Below are positions 9,386 through 60,108 of a DNA stretch of 64,000 nt, one piece after another. The notes beneath the pieces were generated by a model. That model ran no database searches, was not told where the DNA came from, and saw nothing but the letters and a program-made list of their open reading frames with translations. The stretch covers positions 266,396-330,395 of the forward strand of contig CAWGAJ010000001.1 of the NCBI GenBank assembly GCA_963820545.1, written 5' to 3'. The translations under genes were made by a program, and so were the position numbers. This DNA is from Pirellulales bacterium (GTDB taxonomy: Bacteria; Planctomycetota; Planctomycetia; Pirellulales; Thermoguttaceae). Position 1 is the stretch's first letter. Every line of letters begins with the position of its first letter.

Positions 9386-9910
9386 TTACCTCACAGGCGG
9401 GTTTATAAATGACTCTGGTAAACCTTGCTCTTGATTGATTCGATTGATTGCAATGTATTTTTCTAACTCTTCGATTGTTAAACTTAGATCAGGGGGAAAA
9501 GTCGGCGTCGGGGATGATAACAAAGTAGATCGGATCAGGTTTGCATCTTCACCCGTGAAATTAAATTCAGTGATTGCCCCCGATAGTAACTGTTGGTAGA
9601 CATGTCTTTCGATATTCTCCCTTAAGACCGACCAGGCACATAAGCCGGGGATTAACTTGGCGAAAGTCTGTACGGCAACCGTAACGGTATCAGAATAAAT
9701 CTCAATCAGTCTCTCAGCACTTAACGTCGGGCGTGCCGTTTGTTGATGCTGTTCTAACTCCGCTAGTTCATCTTGGGCTTTCAGATACATTTTTTGGTAT
9801 TGTAATCTTTCGTTGCCCTCAGACTTTTTAATTTGTTTTTTTAGTTCTCTGATTTGTTTTTTCTTAGCTTCTATCATTGGCTTCCTCATATTTAATTTCA
9901 GGCCCGTCAT
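9386..9910 (-). CDS. hypothetical protein (candidate terminase small subunit by position)
   Basis: 174 aa, lysine-rich coiled-coil N-terminus, immediately upstream of the terminase ATPase ORF. Confidence 0.4.
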   Translation of the reverse strand: MTGLKLNMRKPMIEAKKKQIRELKKQIKKSEGNERLQYQKMYLKAQDELAELEQHQQTARPTLSAERLIEIYSDTVTVAVQTFAKLIPGLCAWSVLRENIERHVYQQLLSGAITEFNFTGEDANLIRSTLLSSPTPTFPPDLSLTIEELEKYIAINRINQEQGLPESFINPPVR

Positions 9911-10082
9911 AATCTTTATTTATGGACGGTCGATCATCACGGCGTCTTTGCCCGTTGGAAGAGTATCTAACAGAAATAGAATGGCCCCAAGATGATCCTG
10001 CCACCCAACACTCTTCACATTTTCCATCGTAATATGGTTTTACATCCTTACTTCCGCACACTAAGCAAATAGAATCTGGCAT
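9864..10082 (-). CDS. small zinc-ribbon protein
   Basis: 72 aa with CLVCGS...CEEC; overlaps the downstream gene by 47 nt, so the call is uncertain. Confidence 0.3.
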   Translation of the reverse strand: MPDSICLVCGSKDVKPYYDGKCEECWVAGSSWGHSISVRYSSNGQRRRDDRPSINKDYDGPEIKYEEANDRS

Positions 10083-14400: not shown

Positions 14401-14580
14401 TATATAATCGCCAATCGGGAAACGCTCATAATAAAGGTAAGGCGAAAGCTTGTCAATTGGGGCATAACTCCATGCACGGCAACGCATTACTGCCGAAATA
14501 AAACGCCCGCCCAACACCCTTTCTATAAGCGTCATTTTTGTGCCAACCTCCGCAGCGGATGCAGGGGATTGCATTCTTTA

Positions 14581-14776
14581 GGCCTGGAGGGCCGAAGTAG
14601 TGTAGCCAGGGACGCAAGTCCCTGGGGAGAGTTTATAACCTACTGAAAAGCCCCGGAGGGGCGGCGTACATGAATCGTTTTCGGCATCCTATGTCGCCCT
14701 TTCAGGGCTGCATCCGAAGAATCAATACGTTCCGGTGGCTTACGCCACCGGCTACACAATATCGGCCCTCCGGGCC
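14581..14776. ncRNA. candidate GC-rich structured RNA (unclassified; strand unknown)
   Basis: 5' arm GGCCTGGAGGGCCGAAGTAGTGTAGCC (14581..14607) pairs with 3' arm GGCTACACAATATCGGCCCTCCGGGCC (14750..14776); internal hairpins CAGGGAC..GTCCCTG and CCGGTGGC..GCCACCGG; about 58% GC in a 40% GC context. Confidence 0.35.
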
Positions 14777-14995
14777 TAACGCAATTTTCCCCACACAACC
14801 CAACGTAAAAGGCTAGAGCAGTGCTCAGGATGATGTAGCGTCCGTTTAGCCCGGTCGCTTGCGACCGGTGAATTTTCCCCGGGAATATGCTCCGCTACAC
14901 CATGTTGAACAGCGTTCTAAATAGTTACAAACAGTATATGCCCACCCCGATGAAAACTATATGCAACAAGCATTGCAACAGGTGGTAGGCGATCT

Positions 14996-16062: not shown

Positions 16063-16241
16063 TTACTGTTCCCGCCTATTCCGATAAGAAGGCCCCACAG
16101 GCTAGACACAAGACAGAAAATCAGCGCAAGATGTTTTACTGACTCCAATCACCACGTCTATTTTACACTTTCTAAAAACCAGCCGCCGGTGGCAAATATA
16201 TGCCGACTTCCGTACTCTATTCCCTTTAGATTAGAATAACT

Positions 16242-16285
16242 GGGGACTGTCCCAATTTTTGCGCAGCAAAAATGGGACTGTCCCC
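16242..16285. repeat. 44-bp palindromic mini-element, copy A (GGGGACTGTCCC-AATTTTTGCGCAGCAAAAAT-GGGACTGTCCCC)
   Basis: near-perfect palindrome; related copies at 16307..16345 and inside bioA at 17007..17068. Confidence 0.7.
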
Positions 16286-16306
16286 TTAACGGTGAAGATT
16301 AAACTT

Positions 16307-16345
16307 GGGAACTGTTACGTTTTTCGCGCAGCAAAATGCGACTCC
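16307..16345. repeat. degenerate copy B of the palindromic mini-element
   Basis: GGGAACTGTTACGTTTTTCGCGCAGCAAAATGCGACTCCC. Confidence 0.5.
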
Positions 16346-16403
16346 CATTTTCGCGTAGTAAAAACCGACCATCACCTTCCAATGATCCTCTTCCACCCAA
16401 ATT

Positions 16404-16433
16404 CTGAACCCTGAACCCCGAACCCTGAACCCT
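16404..16433. repeat. CTGAACC-type heptamer repeat block immediately upstream of the bioA start
   Basis: CTGAACCCTGAACCCCGAACCCTGAACCC; the same family occurs at 17993..18011, 18814..18853, 59705..59732, 60004..60030 and 60044..60066. Confidence 0.6.
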
Positions 16434-16439
16434 TTCGAT

Positions 16440-17858
16440 ATGTCCAATCCTTCCCCCGAAGAACTCGAAACCTGGGATCGCACACTCGTCTGGCACGCCT
16501 TTACGCAGATGGCCGAGTATGAGCCTCTGATCTTGGAACGTGCACAAGGCTGCGTGGTTTGGGATATTGACGGCCACGAGTATATCGACGGCATAAGCAG
16601 CCTGTGGTGCAATATCCATGGCCACCGGCATCCGAAGATCGACGCGGCCGTTCGCGCCCAGCTCGATCGCGTGGCGCACGTCACCTCGCTGGGCAGTTCT
16701 AATCCGACGACCATAAAACTGGCCAAGCGTCTGGTCGATCTTGCCCTGCCGGGCCTTTGTCACGTTTTCTTTTCCGACGACGGGGCCACGGCCGTCGAAG
16801 TGGCTATCAAAATGGCCCTGCAATACTGGCGGCAACGCAAAAATCCCCGGCCGGATAAAACCTGCTACCTGGCCCTGGGCGAGGCATATCACGGCGATAC
16901 CTTAGGCAGCGTGAGCGTCGGCGGCGTGGAGCGCTTCCATGCCATGTTCAAGCCGCTGTTGTTCGAAACCCTGCGCGTACCCGTGCCCGATACGTATCGC
17001 ACGCCAGGGGACTGTCCCAATTTTGGGGACTGTCCCAATTTTCACGCAGTGAAAATGGGACTGTCCCCTTCCAGTTCTAGTAGCATACAATTGTGCAAAT
17101 ATCACCTTGAAAAATTAGAAAAAGTTTTGGCCGAGCACCATGAGCGCATAGCAGCCATGGTGATCGAACCCTTGGTGCAAGCCGCGGCGGGCATGATCGT
17201 GCACCCGGCCGGATATCTGCGCGGCGTAAGAGAACTGACAAAAAAATACGACGTGCTGCTGATCGCCGATGAAGTCGCCGTGGCCTTCGGACGGACCGGC
17301 AAGATGTTCGCCTGCGAGCACGAATCTGTCACGCCCGATTTCCTCTGCCTGGCCAAGGGCATTACCGGCGGTTATCTGCCCTTGGCCGCCACGCTCACGA
17401 CCGAAGAGATCTGGCAGGCTTTTTTGGGCACATACTCCGAGAGCAAAACTTTTTTCCACGGTCACACTTACAGCGGCAATCCCTTGGGCGCCGCCGCCGC
17501 TCTTGCCTGCCTGGATATCTTCGATGAAGAAAAAACCCTAGAACATCTAAAGCCCAAAATCGCCCGGCTGGCCGAGCATCTTACTCGCATCGCTCAACTG
17601 GCTCACGTGGGCCACGTGCGTCAATGCGGGCTGATCGGCGCAATCGAACTGGTCCGCGACAAAGCCGCCAAAGAGCCATACCCTTGGGAAGAAAAACGCG
17701 GCCTGCGCGTCTGCGATTATGCCCGCCGCGAAGGCGTGCTCTTGCGCCCGCTGGGCAACGTAATCGTCATCATGCCCCCGCTTTCCATTACCCTTGAGCA
17801 GTTGGATAGAATTCTAATCGCCGTGGAGCGAGGAATCGTGAACGAAATTGGAGATTAG
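16440..17858 (+). CDS. bioA: adenosylmethionine-8-amino-7-oxononanoate aminotransferase carrying an in-frame insertion
   Basis: 472-aa class-III aminotransferase; the motifs and the gene name bioA are recognised from known BioA proteins (E. coli-type IAAVIIEPIVQGAGGM and [22 protein letters not shown]; here IAAMVIEPLVQAAAGM and LLIADEVAVAFGRTGKMFACEH); an extra ~22-27 aa coded by the palindromic element at 17007..17068. Confidence 0.85.
   Translation: MSNPSPEELETWDRTLVWHAFTQMAEYEPLILERAQGCVVWDIDGHEYIDGISSLWCNIHGHRHPKIDAAVRAQLDRVAHVTSLGSSNPTTIKLAKRLVDLALPGLCHVFFSDDGATAVEVAIKMALQYWRQRKNPRPDKTCYLALGEAYHGDTLGSVSVGGVERFHAMFKPLLFETLRVPVPDTYRTPGDCPNFGDCPNFHAVKMGLSPSSSSSIQLCKYHLEKLEKVLAEHHERIAAMVIEPLVQAAAGMIVHPAGYLRGVRELTKKYDVLLIADEVAVAFGRTGKMFACEHESVTPDFLCLAKGITGGYLPLAATLTTEEIWQAFLGTYSESKTFFHGHTYSGNPLGAAAALACLDIFDEEKTLEHLKPKIARLAEHLTRIAQLAHVGHVRQCGLIGAIELVRDKAAKEPYPWEEKRGLRVCDYARREGVLLRPLGNVIVIMPPLSITLEQLDRILIAVERGIVNEIGD
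17007..17068. repeat. palindromic mini-element copy C inserted in-frame in bioA
   Basis: GGGGACTGTCCCAATTTTGGGGACTGTCCCAATTTTCACGCAGTGAAAATGGGACTGTCCCC translates to GDCPNFGDCPNFHAVKMGLSP within the BioA reading frame. Confidence 0.7.
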
Positions 17859-18007
17859 TGGGCAGTGGATGGTGGACAGGAATTAACGCAGAAGTCAGAA
17901 CGCGGAACGCAGAAGTCAGAACTGAAAACTGATTACTGAAAACAAAAAATCATCCACTATCTACCACAAACCACCTACTACCTACCATTTACCCCGAACC
18001 CTGAATC

Positions 18008-18556
18008 CTATTCCGCGTCGTAGTGTTCTTTTCGCGACAAACGTCGCAATCGCCAATACCGCCAAGCAATTGCTAATAAAAGTATGGGACCATAAAAAAG
18101 TACTTCCACCAGATAAATGCAAAAGGTGTCGAAATCCCAGGGTGGCGGAACATACGGCAAGGTGCGGAACCAGGGCATGGGCAAGGCTAGTCGGGCGGTG
18201 CTTAAAGGCCAAAATATTGTCACTCCCAAGCCATGGTTATAAAAGGAATCCATCAGCAGATGACTCAGCCAGGCCGCCGCGCCCCCGAAAATCACCGGCC
18301 AGGCGCCGATGCCCATTCGCGTTGACTTACACGTGCGCAACACCACGGCAAAGACAATAATTAAAGCCAGATTCACAAACAGGCTGTGACTGACTTCATA
18401 ACGAATATGTCCCCAGCCGGGCAGATGCCAATCGGGCACAGTAGCCAGTCCAATAAATCCCGAAAGAAACGCCGCCTTCGCCCAACAACTCTGATAACGC
18501 GGCATGCAAACCACGCCCATGCTCATGCCGACCAAACTGTGTCCGATGGGAGTCAT
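18008..18556 (-). CDS. membrane-bound metal-dependent hydrolase-like protein (DUF457-like)
   Basis: start chosen at MTPIGHSLVG; multi-TM protein with conserved His near the N-terminus; the longer ORF to 18727 probably includes non-coding repeats. Confidence 0.5.
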   Translation of the reverse strand: MTPIGHSLVGMSMGVVCMPRYQSCWAKAAFLSGFIGLATVPDWHLPGWGHIRYEVSHSLFVNLALIIVFAVVLRTCKSTRMGIGAWPVIFGGAAAWLSHLLMDSFYNHGLGVTIFWPLSTARLALPMPWFRTLPYVPPPWDFDTFCIYLVEVLFYGPILLLAIAWRYWRLRRLSRKEHYDAE

Positions 18557-18861
18557 TAGATATGAGATAGGGGATATAGTCTTCGTCTTAGGTTTAAGCG
18601 CGTTTTCGCGCATGTTTTTATATTGCAAATTGACAATTGCAAATTTCAAATTGCAACTTGAACAACCATAACCACTTGCCCGACTTGTTACCTTACTTCG
18701 TACTATTAACTGAAAACTAAGAACCACCTACTACCTACCACCTACGATGAACTTTTTGGTTACGGCCGTAGGCCGCGCTAGGGGTAGACGGCAGTTAGTA
18801 GGTGGTTATTATTGAACCCCGAATCCTGAATCCTGAACCCCGAACCCTGAACCCTTTTCAT

Positions 18862-24570: not shown

Positions 24571-25952
24571 ATGGAAATACTCGCTATCATTTTCGGCATT
24601 GCCGGCTTGATCTGGGCCGTTGTGCTGCTGCGTCGCGGCGGACTGTTGGCCGGCTGTTTGGCCACCATGTTGGCCGGCGCTTGCTTCAGCGTGGAATTTT
24701 TTAAAGTTGCCATCGGCCCGGTGCCGCTGACGGCCGATCGCATCTTGTTTCTTGCGCTCCTCGGCCAATATTTATTGTGGCGCCGCTGGGGCTGGGCCGA
24801 TCCCAAACCCTTGGGCAAGCCGGAAATATTGCTCTGTCTGTTTGCGGGCATGATGCTCCTAAGCACGTTTTCCAGCGACTACACGGCCGCAAACTGGCAG
24901 CCGGTTTCGTGGCTGATTATCTACTACCTCATGCCGTTTGGTCTCTATTGGATCGTTCGAGACGCCCAGTTCAGCGAAAAAACCTTATGGTGCTTATTCC
25001 TCTGCTTGACCGCGTTTGGCGTATATTTGGCCATAACATCATTAACGGAATATTTTCAGGTTTGGGAACTGGTCTTTCCCACATATATCGCCGCCACGGC
25101 CGCCTTGGAGACGGCCGAGTTTGTCGGTCGGCGCGAGGACCGTTCCTCAATCCCATCAGCAACGGCATTGCCTTGTCGATATGCCTGGGAGCGGCCTTGA
25201 TGATTTGGCCGCGTCTGAGCCGCCCCGGCAAATTGCTGCTCATTCCGCTGTATCTGCTATTTATGGCCGCGATTTACACTACCTTGACTCGCAGCGTATG
25301 GATGAGCTGCGTACTGACCCTGGCCCTGGTAATATGTTTGGCCTTGCCCTGGAACTGGCGTCTGCCGATTCTTAGCGCAGGCCTGCTGCTGGCCCTGCTG
25401 CTGGCCTTTACGCAATGGGATCAATTGGTGGCCTTCAAACGCGAGCGAAATCTCGACGCCGGCAATACCGCCGAATCGGTCCAGTTGCGCCCCGTCTTGG
25501 CCACTATCGCCTGGAAAATGTTTCTCGATCATCCGCTTTTCGGCTGCGGCTATTCGCAATACAAAACCGAACATCTCAACTATCTTTCCGACCGCTCCAC
25601 AACCCTGGTGCTGGAAAAAGGCCGCGGCTATATTCCCCACAACGTGGTCTTTTCGCTCTTGACCGAGACGGGCCTGGTCGGCCTGGGCCTGTTTTTGGCG
25701 ATAGTATATTTCTGGGCAGCCGACGCTTGGTGTCTCTGGCGAACGAAAACCATCCCGCTCGTGGCCCGGCAACAAGGCTTGCTCATGCTTGTCGTCTTGC
25801 AAGCCTATTTCCTGAACGGCATGTTCCACGACGTTTCCGCCGTGCCCATGGGCAACATGATTCTGTTCTTCCTGGCGGGAGTAACTGCCGGCTTGCGCCC
25901 CTGCCTGCAATCGGCTATCGCACCAAATGTAGGTCAGGCACCCCGTGCCTGA
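24571..25952 (+). CDS. O-antigen ligase / Wzy_C-family membrane protein (apparent frameshift near 25135)
   Basis: GRARGPFLNPISNG and TLTRSVWMS motifs in the second frame; the N-terminal TM segments are in ORF 24493..25200; the C-terminus runs into a REP. Confidence 0.6.
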
Positions 25953-25953
25953 C
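25933..25953. repeat. REP palindrome (left) flanking the RAYT gene
   Basis: GTCAGGCACCCCGTGCCTGAC; inverted partner at 26567..26587. Confidence 0.7.
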
Positions 25954-25999
25954 AGACATTAGGCTTGTTGTCAACGTCTCGTGTTGATACGATATCCAC

Positions 26000-26551
26000 A
26001 TGTCCGATTATCGACGCTATTTCGTGCCGGGCGGAACGTATTTCTTTACGGTTGTCACAGAAGGTAGAGCACAACTGTTTGATCTGAATTCCGCAAGGAC
26101 TATACTTGGGAGCGTTATACGCCAATGTTTTCTTCGATATCCGGTTGACGTCGTTGCCATTGTGCTGCTACCGAATCACATACACGCATTGTGGACACTG
26201 CCTACTGGCAACGACAGGTACTCGCTGAGATGGCGATGGATCAAGCGCGAATTCACGCGGGCTTGGTTGGACCTAGGCGGCGTGGAGCAAAGCCGTCAAT
26301 CCACACGTCTGATCGAACGCCGACGCGGTGTATGGCAACGTCGGTTTTGGGAGCATGCCATTCGGGATGAAGTAGATTTAGAAGCCCATTTCGATTACAT
26401 CCATTATAATCCCGTTAAACATGGGCTTGTCCAACGACCGCGCGATTGGCCGTGGTCGAGTTTTCATCGCTGGGTCCAGGCTGGACATTATCATATCGAT
26501 TGGGCAGCCGGACAGGACCTCGTGCAATTGCCCGGTGACGCAGGCGAATAA
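26000..26551 (+). CDS. REP-associated tyrosine transposase (RAYT; IS200/IS605 TnpA-like, Y1)
   Basis: 183 aa; HuH motif LPNHIHAL and catalytic-Tyr region HFDYIHYNPVKHGL; flanked by inverted REP palindromes. Confidence 0.8.
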   Translation: MSDYRRYFVPGGTYFFTVVTEGRAQLFDLNSARTILGSVIRQCFLRYPVDVVAIVLLPNHIHALWTLPTGNDRYSLRWRWIKREFTRAWLDLGGVEQSRQSTRLIERRRGVWQRRFWEHAIRDEVDLEAHFDYIHYNPVKHGLVQRPRDWPWSSFHRWVQAGHYHIDWAAGQDLVQLPGDAGE

Positions 26552-26566
26552 AGTGTCACAGCAATT

Positions 26567-26587
26567 GTCAGGCACGGGGTGCCTGAC
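26567..26587. repeat. REP palindrome (right), inverted relative to 25933..25953
   Basis: GTCAGGCACGGGGTGCCTGAC. Confidence 0.7.
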
Positions 26588-27115
26588 CTAGACTAGACTT
26601 GCGGTTGGCGTCGCTCATGATGTTGCCTTCCCCTTGTCAGGACAAGGTCGGCACGCCGAAGGAATGATTTCGGAGCTCAATGGCTGGCCTGCGTGTGCCC
26701 CTGTCAACGCTTCACCCGCGGCGTTACCGTCACCGGCGCATGACTCGAGGTCAAGATGGTTCGCTATTCCTTTCTTGTGCGGCTCTTTCATCCGCTACTC
26801 CATGCCGGTTTTGACCGGCGCTTTCCCTGACACCGCTTTACCCTTTTGAGACGTGTGTGTTTTTCAGTTCCTCCTTGTTTTACGCACTAAACGTATGACT
26901 AGTTCGACAAGTCCACTCCGTTCTAAAAATTCCGAATGTTCTCGTTGATTCAAGAACTTCGGTTTTTAGTGTATGTTTTTGGCATCAGAAAGGTGGTTCC
27001 CGGCAACTACAATGGGGAAACACCCAACCGGAAGCGGCCTCAATAAGAATTGTGGTCTAGGTTTGCATAGACGCGAGCAGGTTGGCGTCAGTAGTACTTA
27101 ACGAGGAGACGGAAA

Positions 27116-59555: not shown

Positions 59556-59744
59556 AAAGATAGATTCGCCCCAAAAATGCGTATGCCAATATTCGGGTGC
59601 CACTGGCGTCTCGCCAGTGCCGCCTGTAATAAACACGGGCAAAATGCCCGTGCCACCCAACCCAATAAATAAGGTTCAAAGTTTAGGATTTAATTGTCCA
59701 AGCAAGTTCTGAACCCCGAACCCTGAACCCTAAAGGAAATTCCC

Positions 59745-59993: not shown

Positions 59994-60108
59994 AGGATTC
60001 AGAGGTCAGGGTTCAGGGTGCAGAACCCGGATGGAAGAAAACATCTGAACCCTGAACCGCGAACCCTTGTTGCTGCCCACCGCCCACTAATCCCCAATCC
60101 CTTTTTTT

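Follow-up and report, generated by a model that had tools for sequence, protein, structure and literature searches.

A palindromic mini-repeat upstream of and in frame within bioA of a Pirellulales bacterium, very probably one copy of a family dispersed in planctomycete genomes

Introduction

Palindromic repeats that lie in frame inside protein-coding genes are best known from Rickettsia, and have been discussed as a curiosity of reductive intracellular genomes. The present work concerns a comparable element at bioA, the gene for adenosylmethionine-8-amino-7-oxononanoate transaminase, in a 64,000-nucleotide stretch (referred to below as the window) of a Pirellulales bacterium of the Thermoguttaceae (GenBank assembly GCA_963820545.1, contig CAWGAJ010000001.1, positions 266,396 to 330,395), where one copy lies upstream of the gene and another forms part of its reading frame. 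The element very probably belongs to a family of palindromic mini-repeats that are non-autonomous and occur at many dispersed loci in Pirellulales/Thermoguttaceae planctomycetes. No published description of a repeat family built on its 11-mer GGGACTGTCCC was found in the literature searched; the family is apparently undescribed, and its behaviour is of a known, Rickettsia-like kind.

The closest described systems are the Rickettsia palindromic elements (RPE; Ogata et al. 2000, as cited in PMC3733652 and PMC3184786), of approximately 105-146 nt (PMC3184786). In other bacteria, too, in-frame fusions of small repeats with genes have been described, as for the enterobacterial RU/YAPL elements, the pneumococcal SPRITE/BOX elements and others (reviewed in PMC3184786). 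An earlier reading of the window made from its sequence alone, the original prediction, was right to draw the parallel with RPEs; its statement that such insertion is rare elsewhere was somewhat overstated. A further class comprises the GTAG- or CGTC-tagged repetitive extragenic palindromes (REPs) and the REP/REPIN elements mobilised by the REP-associated tyrosine transposase (RAYT), catalogued by Di Nocera et al. (PMC3733652).

Like RPEs, the repeat at bioA belongs to a set of palindromes dispersed between genes and in frame in conserved genes, which add a short peptide and do not destroy the host protein; it was found in frame in BioA, MutL, PPK1, ThiE, a radical-SAM enzyme, a Ser/Thr kinase and a GH95 glycosidase. 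It differs in its size, with a core of 44 nt against 105-146 nt (a comparison by size and description), in its hosts, which are free-living Planctomycetota with large genomes and not obligate intracellular bacteria, and in arms that are conserved across many genera around a centre consisting of a variable stem-loop. With REP/REPIN elements it shares short imperfect palindromes that form hairpins with mismatches or bulges, a dispersed and sometimes clustered or tandem arrangement, non-autonomy and the lack of an obvious target-site duplication, whereas it has neither a GTAG nor a CGTC tag, does not flank the RAYT of the window, and has a large fraction of its copies inside open reading frames (ORFs), not predominantly outside genes. 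Terminal inverted repeats, non-autonomy and ORFs that fuse to or lie inside host ORFs are also features of miniature inverted-repeat transposable elements (MITEs) and similar small repeats, although the 44-nt core is below the usual MITE size and neither a target-site duplication nor a parent insertion sequence (IS) was seen; composites of approximately 150-200 nt bounded by GTAACCGTTCAC/GTGAACGGTTAC, described below, do look like MITEs.

Results

Copies of the repeat at bioA

The gene and the copies associated with it are arranged in the window as follows:

16242..16287, forward strand: intact intergenic copy, identified from the sequence (covariance model 76.6 bits, E=1e-16)
16303..16369, forward strand: decayed copy at 16303-16350 (GGGAACTGTTACGTTTTTCGCGCAGCAAAATGCGACT-CCC), with a partial extra inner-stem segment at 16348-16369 (TTTTCGCGTAGTAAAAACCGAC)
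16440..17858, forward strand: bioA, 472 amino acids (TIGR00508, 516 bits, cut-off 405)
17007..17024, forward strand: exact 18-nt tandem duplication of the left arm (GGGGACTGTCCCAATTTT), read as GDCPNF
17025..17070, forward strand: intact in-gene copy (covariance model 76.9 bits, E=1e-16; RNA hairpin -28.7 kcal/mol)
17069..17090, forward strand: A/T-rich tail of 22 nt (TTCCAGTTCTAGTAGCATACAA), 36% GC, encoding SSSSSIQ, delimited by comparison with the empty site of relative L003 and with relative L001

The 11-mer GGGACTGTCCC occurs at five exact sites (16243, 16274, 17008, 17026 and 17057) and nowhere else in the 64 kb; when up to one mismatch is tolerated, the two strands together yield 10 matches where 0.74 would be expected, a number equalled by none of 100 shuffles. 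The 44-nt core of the upstream copy (16242-16285) reads GGGGACTGTCCC-A-ATTTT-TGC-GCA-GCA-AAAAT-GGGACTGTCCCC and is followed by a conserved 3' TT, whereas that of the in-gene copy (17025-17068) reads GGGGACTGTCCC-A-ATTTT-CAC-GCA-GTG-AAAAT-GGGACTGTCCCC, also followed by TT, and encodes the peptide GDCPNFHAVKMGLSP(S). Over 47 nt the two complete units share 91% identity, and their apical stems, TGC/GCA upstream and CAC/GTG in the gene, differ by two compensatory pair changes. The upstream copy is predicted to fold into a hairpin of -18.4 kcal/mol as single-stranded DNA (ssDNA; z=-7.0) and of -28.4 kcal/mol as RNA.

These data bear out the layout given in the original prediction, which placed a 44-bp palindrome about 150 bp upstream of bioA (the distance to the ATG at 16440 is 155 nt), a decayed copy after it, and a translated 62-bp variant with an extra half-site inside the ORF. 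The decayed copy is recognised at 22.7 bits by the covariance model (E=0.002) and at 81% and 82% in repeat comparisons, and its folding no longer exceeds that of shuffles (z=-0.85). The in-gene repeat of 62 nt (17007-17068) is the sum of the 18-nt duplicate, which corresponds to the extra half-site, and the complete 44-nt unit, and its translation is GDCPNFGDCPNFHAVKMGLSP, residues 190-210 of BioA. Left-half duplications of a like kind are present in L001, L049, L062, L041 and L078. With its filters off, the covariance model detected no further copy in the window beyond the two intact and the one decayed.

A dispersed family with near-invariant arms and a variable stem

The family was surveyed by scanning one representative genome per species with the exact 18-mer GGGGACTGTCCCRATTTT, which covers the left arm only and therefore inflates the apparent conservation of the arms. 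The scan returned at least 118 stretches, several per genome, and among the matches listed almost all belong to Planctomycetota metagenome-assembled genomes (MAGs) labelled Pirellulales, Thermoguttaceae, Planctomycetia or 'Planctomycetaceae'. The BioA loci of other metagenomes served as a control; their 640 kb contained only two copies, both in close relatives of the window genome.

The unit consists, in this order, of GGGGACTGTCCC, a purine (R), ATTTT, a variable centre of 5-60 nt that forms a usually GC-rich apical stem-loop, AAAAT, GGGACTGTCCCC and a final YT, with a core of 42-52 nt in most copies. Its 12-nt arms, GGGGACTGTCCC and GGGACTGTCCCC, are terminal inverted repeats with one central mismatch, and the unit holds two direct copies of the near-palindromic 11-mer, the half-sites being 31 nt apart in the copies at bioA. 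Although outside the query, the right arm is nearly invariant among the matches listed. Folded as a single strand, the unit gives a hairpin of approximately 20 bp in which a T.T mismatch is conserved and a purine is bulged out, followed by a YT tail at the 3' end. Of 119 copies, 116 have T at the centre of the right arm, which yields a T.T mismatch and not a T-A pair, and in 117 of 119 the 3' dinucleotide is YT; the 3' end of the element reads CCCC-YT. The position preceding the left arm is not constrained (C 40, G 31, A 25, T 23), and the element begins with GGGGACTG. A covariance model built from family members tells the two strands apart by approximately 30 bits.

Among fifteen 44-nt copies, hairpin pairing is kept in 98.9% of cells, and the three apical pairs show double-sided changes in 11 cells (CG/UA, GC/CG/AU), which none of 500 shuffles equalled. 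No Rfam family matched the element at its gathering threshold, and at a cut-off of E<=10 the only matches within 16100-17200 were chance-level microRNA ones with E>2.

It should be noted that the unit also occurs in larger arrangements. Composite, MITE-like elements of approximately 150-200 nt with 12-nt terminal inverted repeats (GTAACCGTTCAC/GTGAACGGTTAC) enclose the GGGACTGTCCC unit in L117, L087, L027, L024, L046, L066 and L077; some of them also hold a second hairpin family (GGGGACAGGCACATTTTTCGCCC...GGGCGAAAAATGAGCCAGTCCCC), and other sub-families are nested in long CTTAG...CTAAG palindromes. The 18-mer is further present in nine IMG/VR contigs classed as viral (L203-L211), eight of which hold complete elements, with eight complete copies counted in all; these contigs may be prophages, planctomycete phages or misclassified host DNA.

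Filled and empty bioA sites in relatives

The history of the in-gene copy was examined with an alignment of 71 sequences and a neighbour-joining tree, the BioA homologues being Thermoguttaceae/Pirellulales proteins. Between the flanking motifs YRTP and LCKYHL, essentially all Pirellulales orthologues have a loop of seven residues (xGVxPEx), and longer loops are confined to a shallow clade around the window protein (approximately 85% identity). In this clade the insert-bearing proteins (the window and P0001-P0007) and the insert-free ones (P0008-P0016, nine of the 16 closest relatives) are interleaved. The segment is hence not shared by all relatives over unrelated DNA, as an ancient native loop would have it, and the insert is derived and unstable.

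The inserts of the clade differ in their apical tripeptides (HAV, CAA, RET, REA, RPA), and we infer that this variety is what compensatory stems such as CAC/GTG, TGC/GCA and CGC/GCG would encode, these stems being deduced from the peptides, with DNA read for P0002 alone among P0001-P0007. The insert of P0003 appears to consist of a left half and, after it, a complete unit in the opposite orientation (EGDSPIFAARKSGQSP). In the DNA of P0002 (L001) there are two and a half units together with a segment of the KGTGPF type. The empty site, read in the DNA of L003, is CGAACGCCG-GCGGGCGTGGGGCAGGAAGAA-TTGTGC. At the same place the window has 84 nt, that is, the 62-nt repeat and the 22-nt tail, instead of the 21-nt ancestral loop, and the frame is kept. 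Since independent assemblies of relatives contain variants of the insert at the same site (P0001-P0007; DNA of L001/L002), misassembly seems unlikely.

Concerning the upstream copy, it is absent from the relatives L001, L003 and L202, the last of which also has an empty bioA site. Upstream of bioA in L001 (9911-9926) and L003 (9916-9931) there is a sequence, CTGG(G/A)GACTAAAAATG (CTGGGGACTAAAAATG), that matches the first 9 and the inner 7 bases of the element, as if its middle had been deleted; the bioA spacers of these two relatives can be aligned with that of the window over the last 45 nt or so only, and the sequence could be a remnant or a chance match. In L202 the upstream spacer (9580-10000) of 420 nt is full of other palindromic and direct repeats, for example CACGGAGATCGCGGAGTACG / CCTCCGTGTACTCCGTGCCTCCGTGG. 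The bioA upstream spacer seems to collect repeats in several lineages.

The insert as a modelled loop of the BioA fold

Aligned with B. subtilis BioA (3DOD), residues 194-222 of the window protein (29 residues) face seven in the structure, a surplus of 22, and relative to its closest insert-free relatives (451 amino acids) the window protein is 21 residues longer; both values agree with the 20-25 extra residues that the original prediction had given for the place of the repeat. An AlphaFold (AF2) model, built on a diverse alignment of 86 BioA sequences (50%-representative search), has a mean predicted local distance difference test (pLDDT) value of 94.7 and a predicted template modelling (pTM) score of 0.94. 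Its only poorly defined stretch is formed by residues 190-212, between the strand 177-180 and the helix 213-236, with pLDDT below 50 at 202-208. The best Foldseek match of the model is B. subtilis BioA (3DU4_A, TM 0.96, root mean square deviation 1.4 A), and the lysine that binds pyridoxal phosphate, K306, as well as D277 and E243 are conserved. As far as the model goes, the insert is a disordered loop, the only one, on an otherwise intact and confidently predicted BioA fold. Across the 86 diverse BioA sequences this loop has between 0 and 38 residues, most often 7, and it therefore tolerates length change. For bioA itself the consequence is probably modest, namely an extra disordered loop and a strong mRNA hairpin.

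Other repeat-like peptides, unrelated to the one of the window, are present in the same loop of the BioA relatives P0030, P0055 and P0073, for example VLEKGTGAFS...KMRLSPFSKP and SRHTPCARPAHGVCRLPS, and P0093 also belongs to the relatives with other repeat-like inserts. A second insertion hot spot follows the motif QYWRQR (RGKRGTGPLSHKRGLSPFP, GFVVPALAGEPAKAG) in P0073, P0110 and P0112. These sequences suggest that several planctomycete repeat families may be translated inside BioA.

Position of the copies relative to genes

The placement of copies relative to ORFs was determined with a gene-calling heuristic based on GC position, which recovers bioA correctly. Of 127 complete copies, 46 fall inside ORFs (16 in sense and 30 in antisense orientation), and approximately 20 of these 46 are at least 300 nt from either ORF end. 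The intergenic copies are distributed over co-directional (16 sense and 12 antisense), convergent (13) and divergent (10) spacers. Copies have no orientation or position bias relative to genes, and their spread over all spacer types and ORFs is therefore not the pattern of a terminator, of a 5'-untranslated-region (5'-UTR) element or of an operator. A terminator or promoter role was also considered and discarded, since a consensus scan gave nothing meaningful and there is no positional bias.

Besides bioA, in-frame copies were found in the following genes (domains according to Pfam, except for the last line):

L044: MutL, between the DNA_mis_repair and MutL_C domains
L094: Ser/Thr protein kinase domain, split by the repeat
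L068: GH95 glycosidase
L062: DUF4350/ABC-auxiliary protein
L113: MacB/FtsX-type permease
L088: polyphosphate kinase (PPK1), middle domain
L017: radical-SAM domain of a MiaB/RimO-type enzyme
L032: ThiE domain of a ThiD2-ThiE fusion
L202: diverged copy in a called TPR gene

The in-ORF copies are read in each of the three frames of either strand, and the resulting peptides are of the types GDCPxF...KMGLSP, GTVPIF...KWDCP, GLSxF...ENGTVP, GDSPIF...KIGTVP, GTVPF...KSGQSP and GQSHF...NRDSP. None of the six frames of the arms contains a stop codon; among short copies, 62% can be read through in every frame, against 2.2% of shuffles, with a mean of 5.17 open frames against 3.08 in shuffled sequences.

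A RAYT in the window

One REP-type transposase is encoded in the window:

26000..26551, forward strand: RAYT (NF047646, 187 bits)

It was initially picked up by tblastn with an E. coli RayT probe and then confirmed with NCBIfam. The gene is bracketed by a perfect 25-nt inverted, GTAG-tagged REP (TAGGTCAGGCACCCCGTGCCTGACA) at 25930-25954, with its complement at 26566-26590; the REP palindrome, GTAGGTCAGGCACCCCGTGCCTGAC, occurs in the window at the RAYT only and is unrelated to the bioA element. RAYT and REP form a separate, classical system of the kind catalogued by Di Nocera et al. (PMC3733652). Directly beside the RAYT, on the reverse strand, there is an Rfam match to the group II intron D1-D4 family (26563-26788, RF02005, 123 bits), the end of which overlaps the right-hand REP; it may be a fragment that is disrupted by, or adjacent to, the RAYT unit.

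Discussion

Probable mobility of the repeat

The original prediction of a mobile palindromic mini-element inserted in frame is supported by a dispersed family, by an insert in bioA that is derived, by other enzymes with in-frame copies and by the disordered loop of the model. Mobility as such we infer from the distribution of copies and from the comparison of filled and empty sites. A copy would land in a tolerant loop of a gene, and as long as the length altered by a multiple of three overall, the gene would remain open, the repeat then being read as a short loop rich in Gly, Asp, Cys, Pro and Ser. At bioA, one copy and its decayed neighbour would have come to lie in the upstream spacer, while a second copy, with its duplicated left arm and A/T tail, would have replaced the ancestral loop of seven residues by one of 28. 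The spread may proceed through transposition-like events on a folded single strand, for example via a hairpin-recognising HUH-type enzyme. As a working hypothesis, the element would suit enzymes that act on folded ssDNA (IS200/IS605-type, RAYT), because of its strand asymmetry and conserved mismatch, the apparent lack of a target-site duplication, the duplication of half units and the nesting in other repeats.

Several observations weigh against this picture. The three copies of the window are all crowded into 830 nt around bioA, which is strikingly clustered for a repeat that disperses at random. At the one filled/empty pair of bioA sites neither a clean insertion junction nor a target-site duplication was seen, and the element substitutes 21 nt instead of being simply added; the patchy tree is compatible with repeated gains as well as with one gain followed by losses or recombination, and cannot separate them. 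No protein family recurs near the copies in more than 8 of the 118 loci listed (8-kb flanks), and the ORFs between inverted pairs are ordinary ones (glutamine synthetase (GlnA), an oxidoreductase, a methyltransferase and flagellar export proteins). The RAYT, the sole REP-type transposase of the window, was rejected as the mobiliser given that it is flanked by a different palindrome. Near-identical arms across many genera are unusual for selfish REP/MITE families and could mean a host function. Finally, it is a presumption that the insert is translated, that BioA is still active and that the hairpin does not hamper translation.

An autonomous IS with the same termini was not found among the 8-kb flanks searched, no direct repeat is evident in the flanks of approximately 140 copies, and the tblastn probe detected no RAYT adjoining copies in the 118 loci listed, with one weak match in L004 approximately 2.3 kb away.

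Alternative explanations

The arms could instead be bound by a protein conserved in planctomycetes, or the element could be a recognised ssDNA or RNA hairpin, kept by selection for a role in nucleoid organisation, in replication or repair, or in transcript processing, with the ORF copies as a tolerated side effect. Arms that are nearly invariant across many MAGs in a search with the left arm only, a T.T mismatch and 3' YT that point to strand-specific recognition, an apical stem preserved by compensatory change and the failure to find an associated transposase in the 118 loci listed would all fit such a host function. We nevertheless consider it unlikely: the exact query makes the arms look more conserved than they may be, the positions are not conserved (three relatives are devoid of the upstream copy and the in-gene copy is patchy), and this turnover, together with the lack of bias relative to genes, the existence of decayed copies and the nesting of the unit inside MITE-like composites that have terminal repeats of their own, is what selfish repeats typically show. 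Even less probable is a cis-acting structured RNA (an mRNA stabiliser, RNase target or attenuator) that would act on bioA from the 5' UTR and the coding sequence. The strength of the two RNA hairpins, the covariation of the apical stem with the strand asymmetry and the presence of two sense-strand copies at one gene speak for it; against it, Rfam offers no match in the region even at E<=10, copies elsewhere occur in both orientations and in divergent, convergent and co-directional spacers alike, bioA relatives do without the upstream copy, and no terminator-like T run follows the hairpin.

The original prediction had itself offered a biotin-operator-like site that was duplicated; such a site would be bound by BirA or some other biotin regulator, both before bioA and within it. 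Both intact copies of the window are indeed at bioA, and the unit there is a palindrome with its two half-sites 31 nt apart. The BirA operator consensus is TGTnAAC-N14-GTTnACA, to which the sequence of the element is unrelated; in addition, no copy precedes bioA in L001, L003 or L202, and at least 118 other stretches lie beside or inside genes unrelated to biotin (MutL, PPK1, ThiE, GlnA, flagellar export), so that this alternative is rejected as extremely improbable. An ancient native loop of BioA, or an artefact of assembly, can hardly be the explanation either. The length at this position does vary among BioA proteins generally (0-38 residues), yet the seven-residue loop is ancestral, being found in essentially all Pirellulales orthologues and in nine of the 16 closest relatives, the inserted DNA is the same repeat as the intergenic copy, and variants of it are present in independent assemblies.

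Implications

If the bioA element is indeed a copy of a dispersed, non-autonomous repeat, RPE-like behaviour now extends to free-living planctomycetes with large genomes, one family reaching into BioA and the other enzymes named above, and the copies constitute a broad natural data set on protein loop acquisition. There is also a warning for annotation and alignment, as planctomycete peptides such as GDCPxF...KMGLSP or GDSPIF...KIGTVP are repeat-derived. The hairpin, being conserved and asymmetric, offers a starting point for identifying the enzyme or binding protein by which it is recognised.

A bolder proposal, which we regard as rather unlikely, is that the repeat is more than a further REP or MITE, namely a lineage-wide hairpin with the conserved T.T mismatch, the bulged purine and the 3' YT as its marks, recognised in a strand-specific manner and moved or maintained by a conserved planctomycete enzyme other than the RAYT of the window, and that it has evolved its six-frame openness. 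If this were true, a coding-compatible element would routinely give rise to additional surface loops in enzymes that free-living bacteria depend on, and the pairing of element and enzyme could reveal the mechanism.

Other features of the window

Two matches to the Acido-Lenti-1 RNA, at 14580-14625 (reverse strand) and 14732-14777 (forward strand), score 43 and 48 bits (gathering score 37); they are oppositely oriented, approximately 110 nt apart and located approximately 1.5 kb upstream of bioA. Tandem heptamers of the form (CYGAACC)n account for 14 matches in the window, against 0.22 expected, at 16404-16432, 17994-18008, 18812-18854, 59709-59730 and 60002-60066. One of these clusters is immediately 5' of the bioA ATG, a position that is kept in the relatives L001 and L003, and the reverse complement of the heptamer abuts a copy of the palindromic element in L204 and L206.

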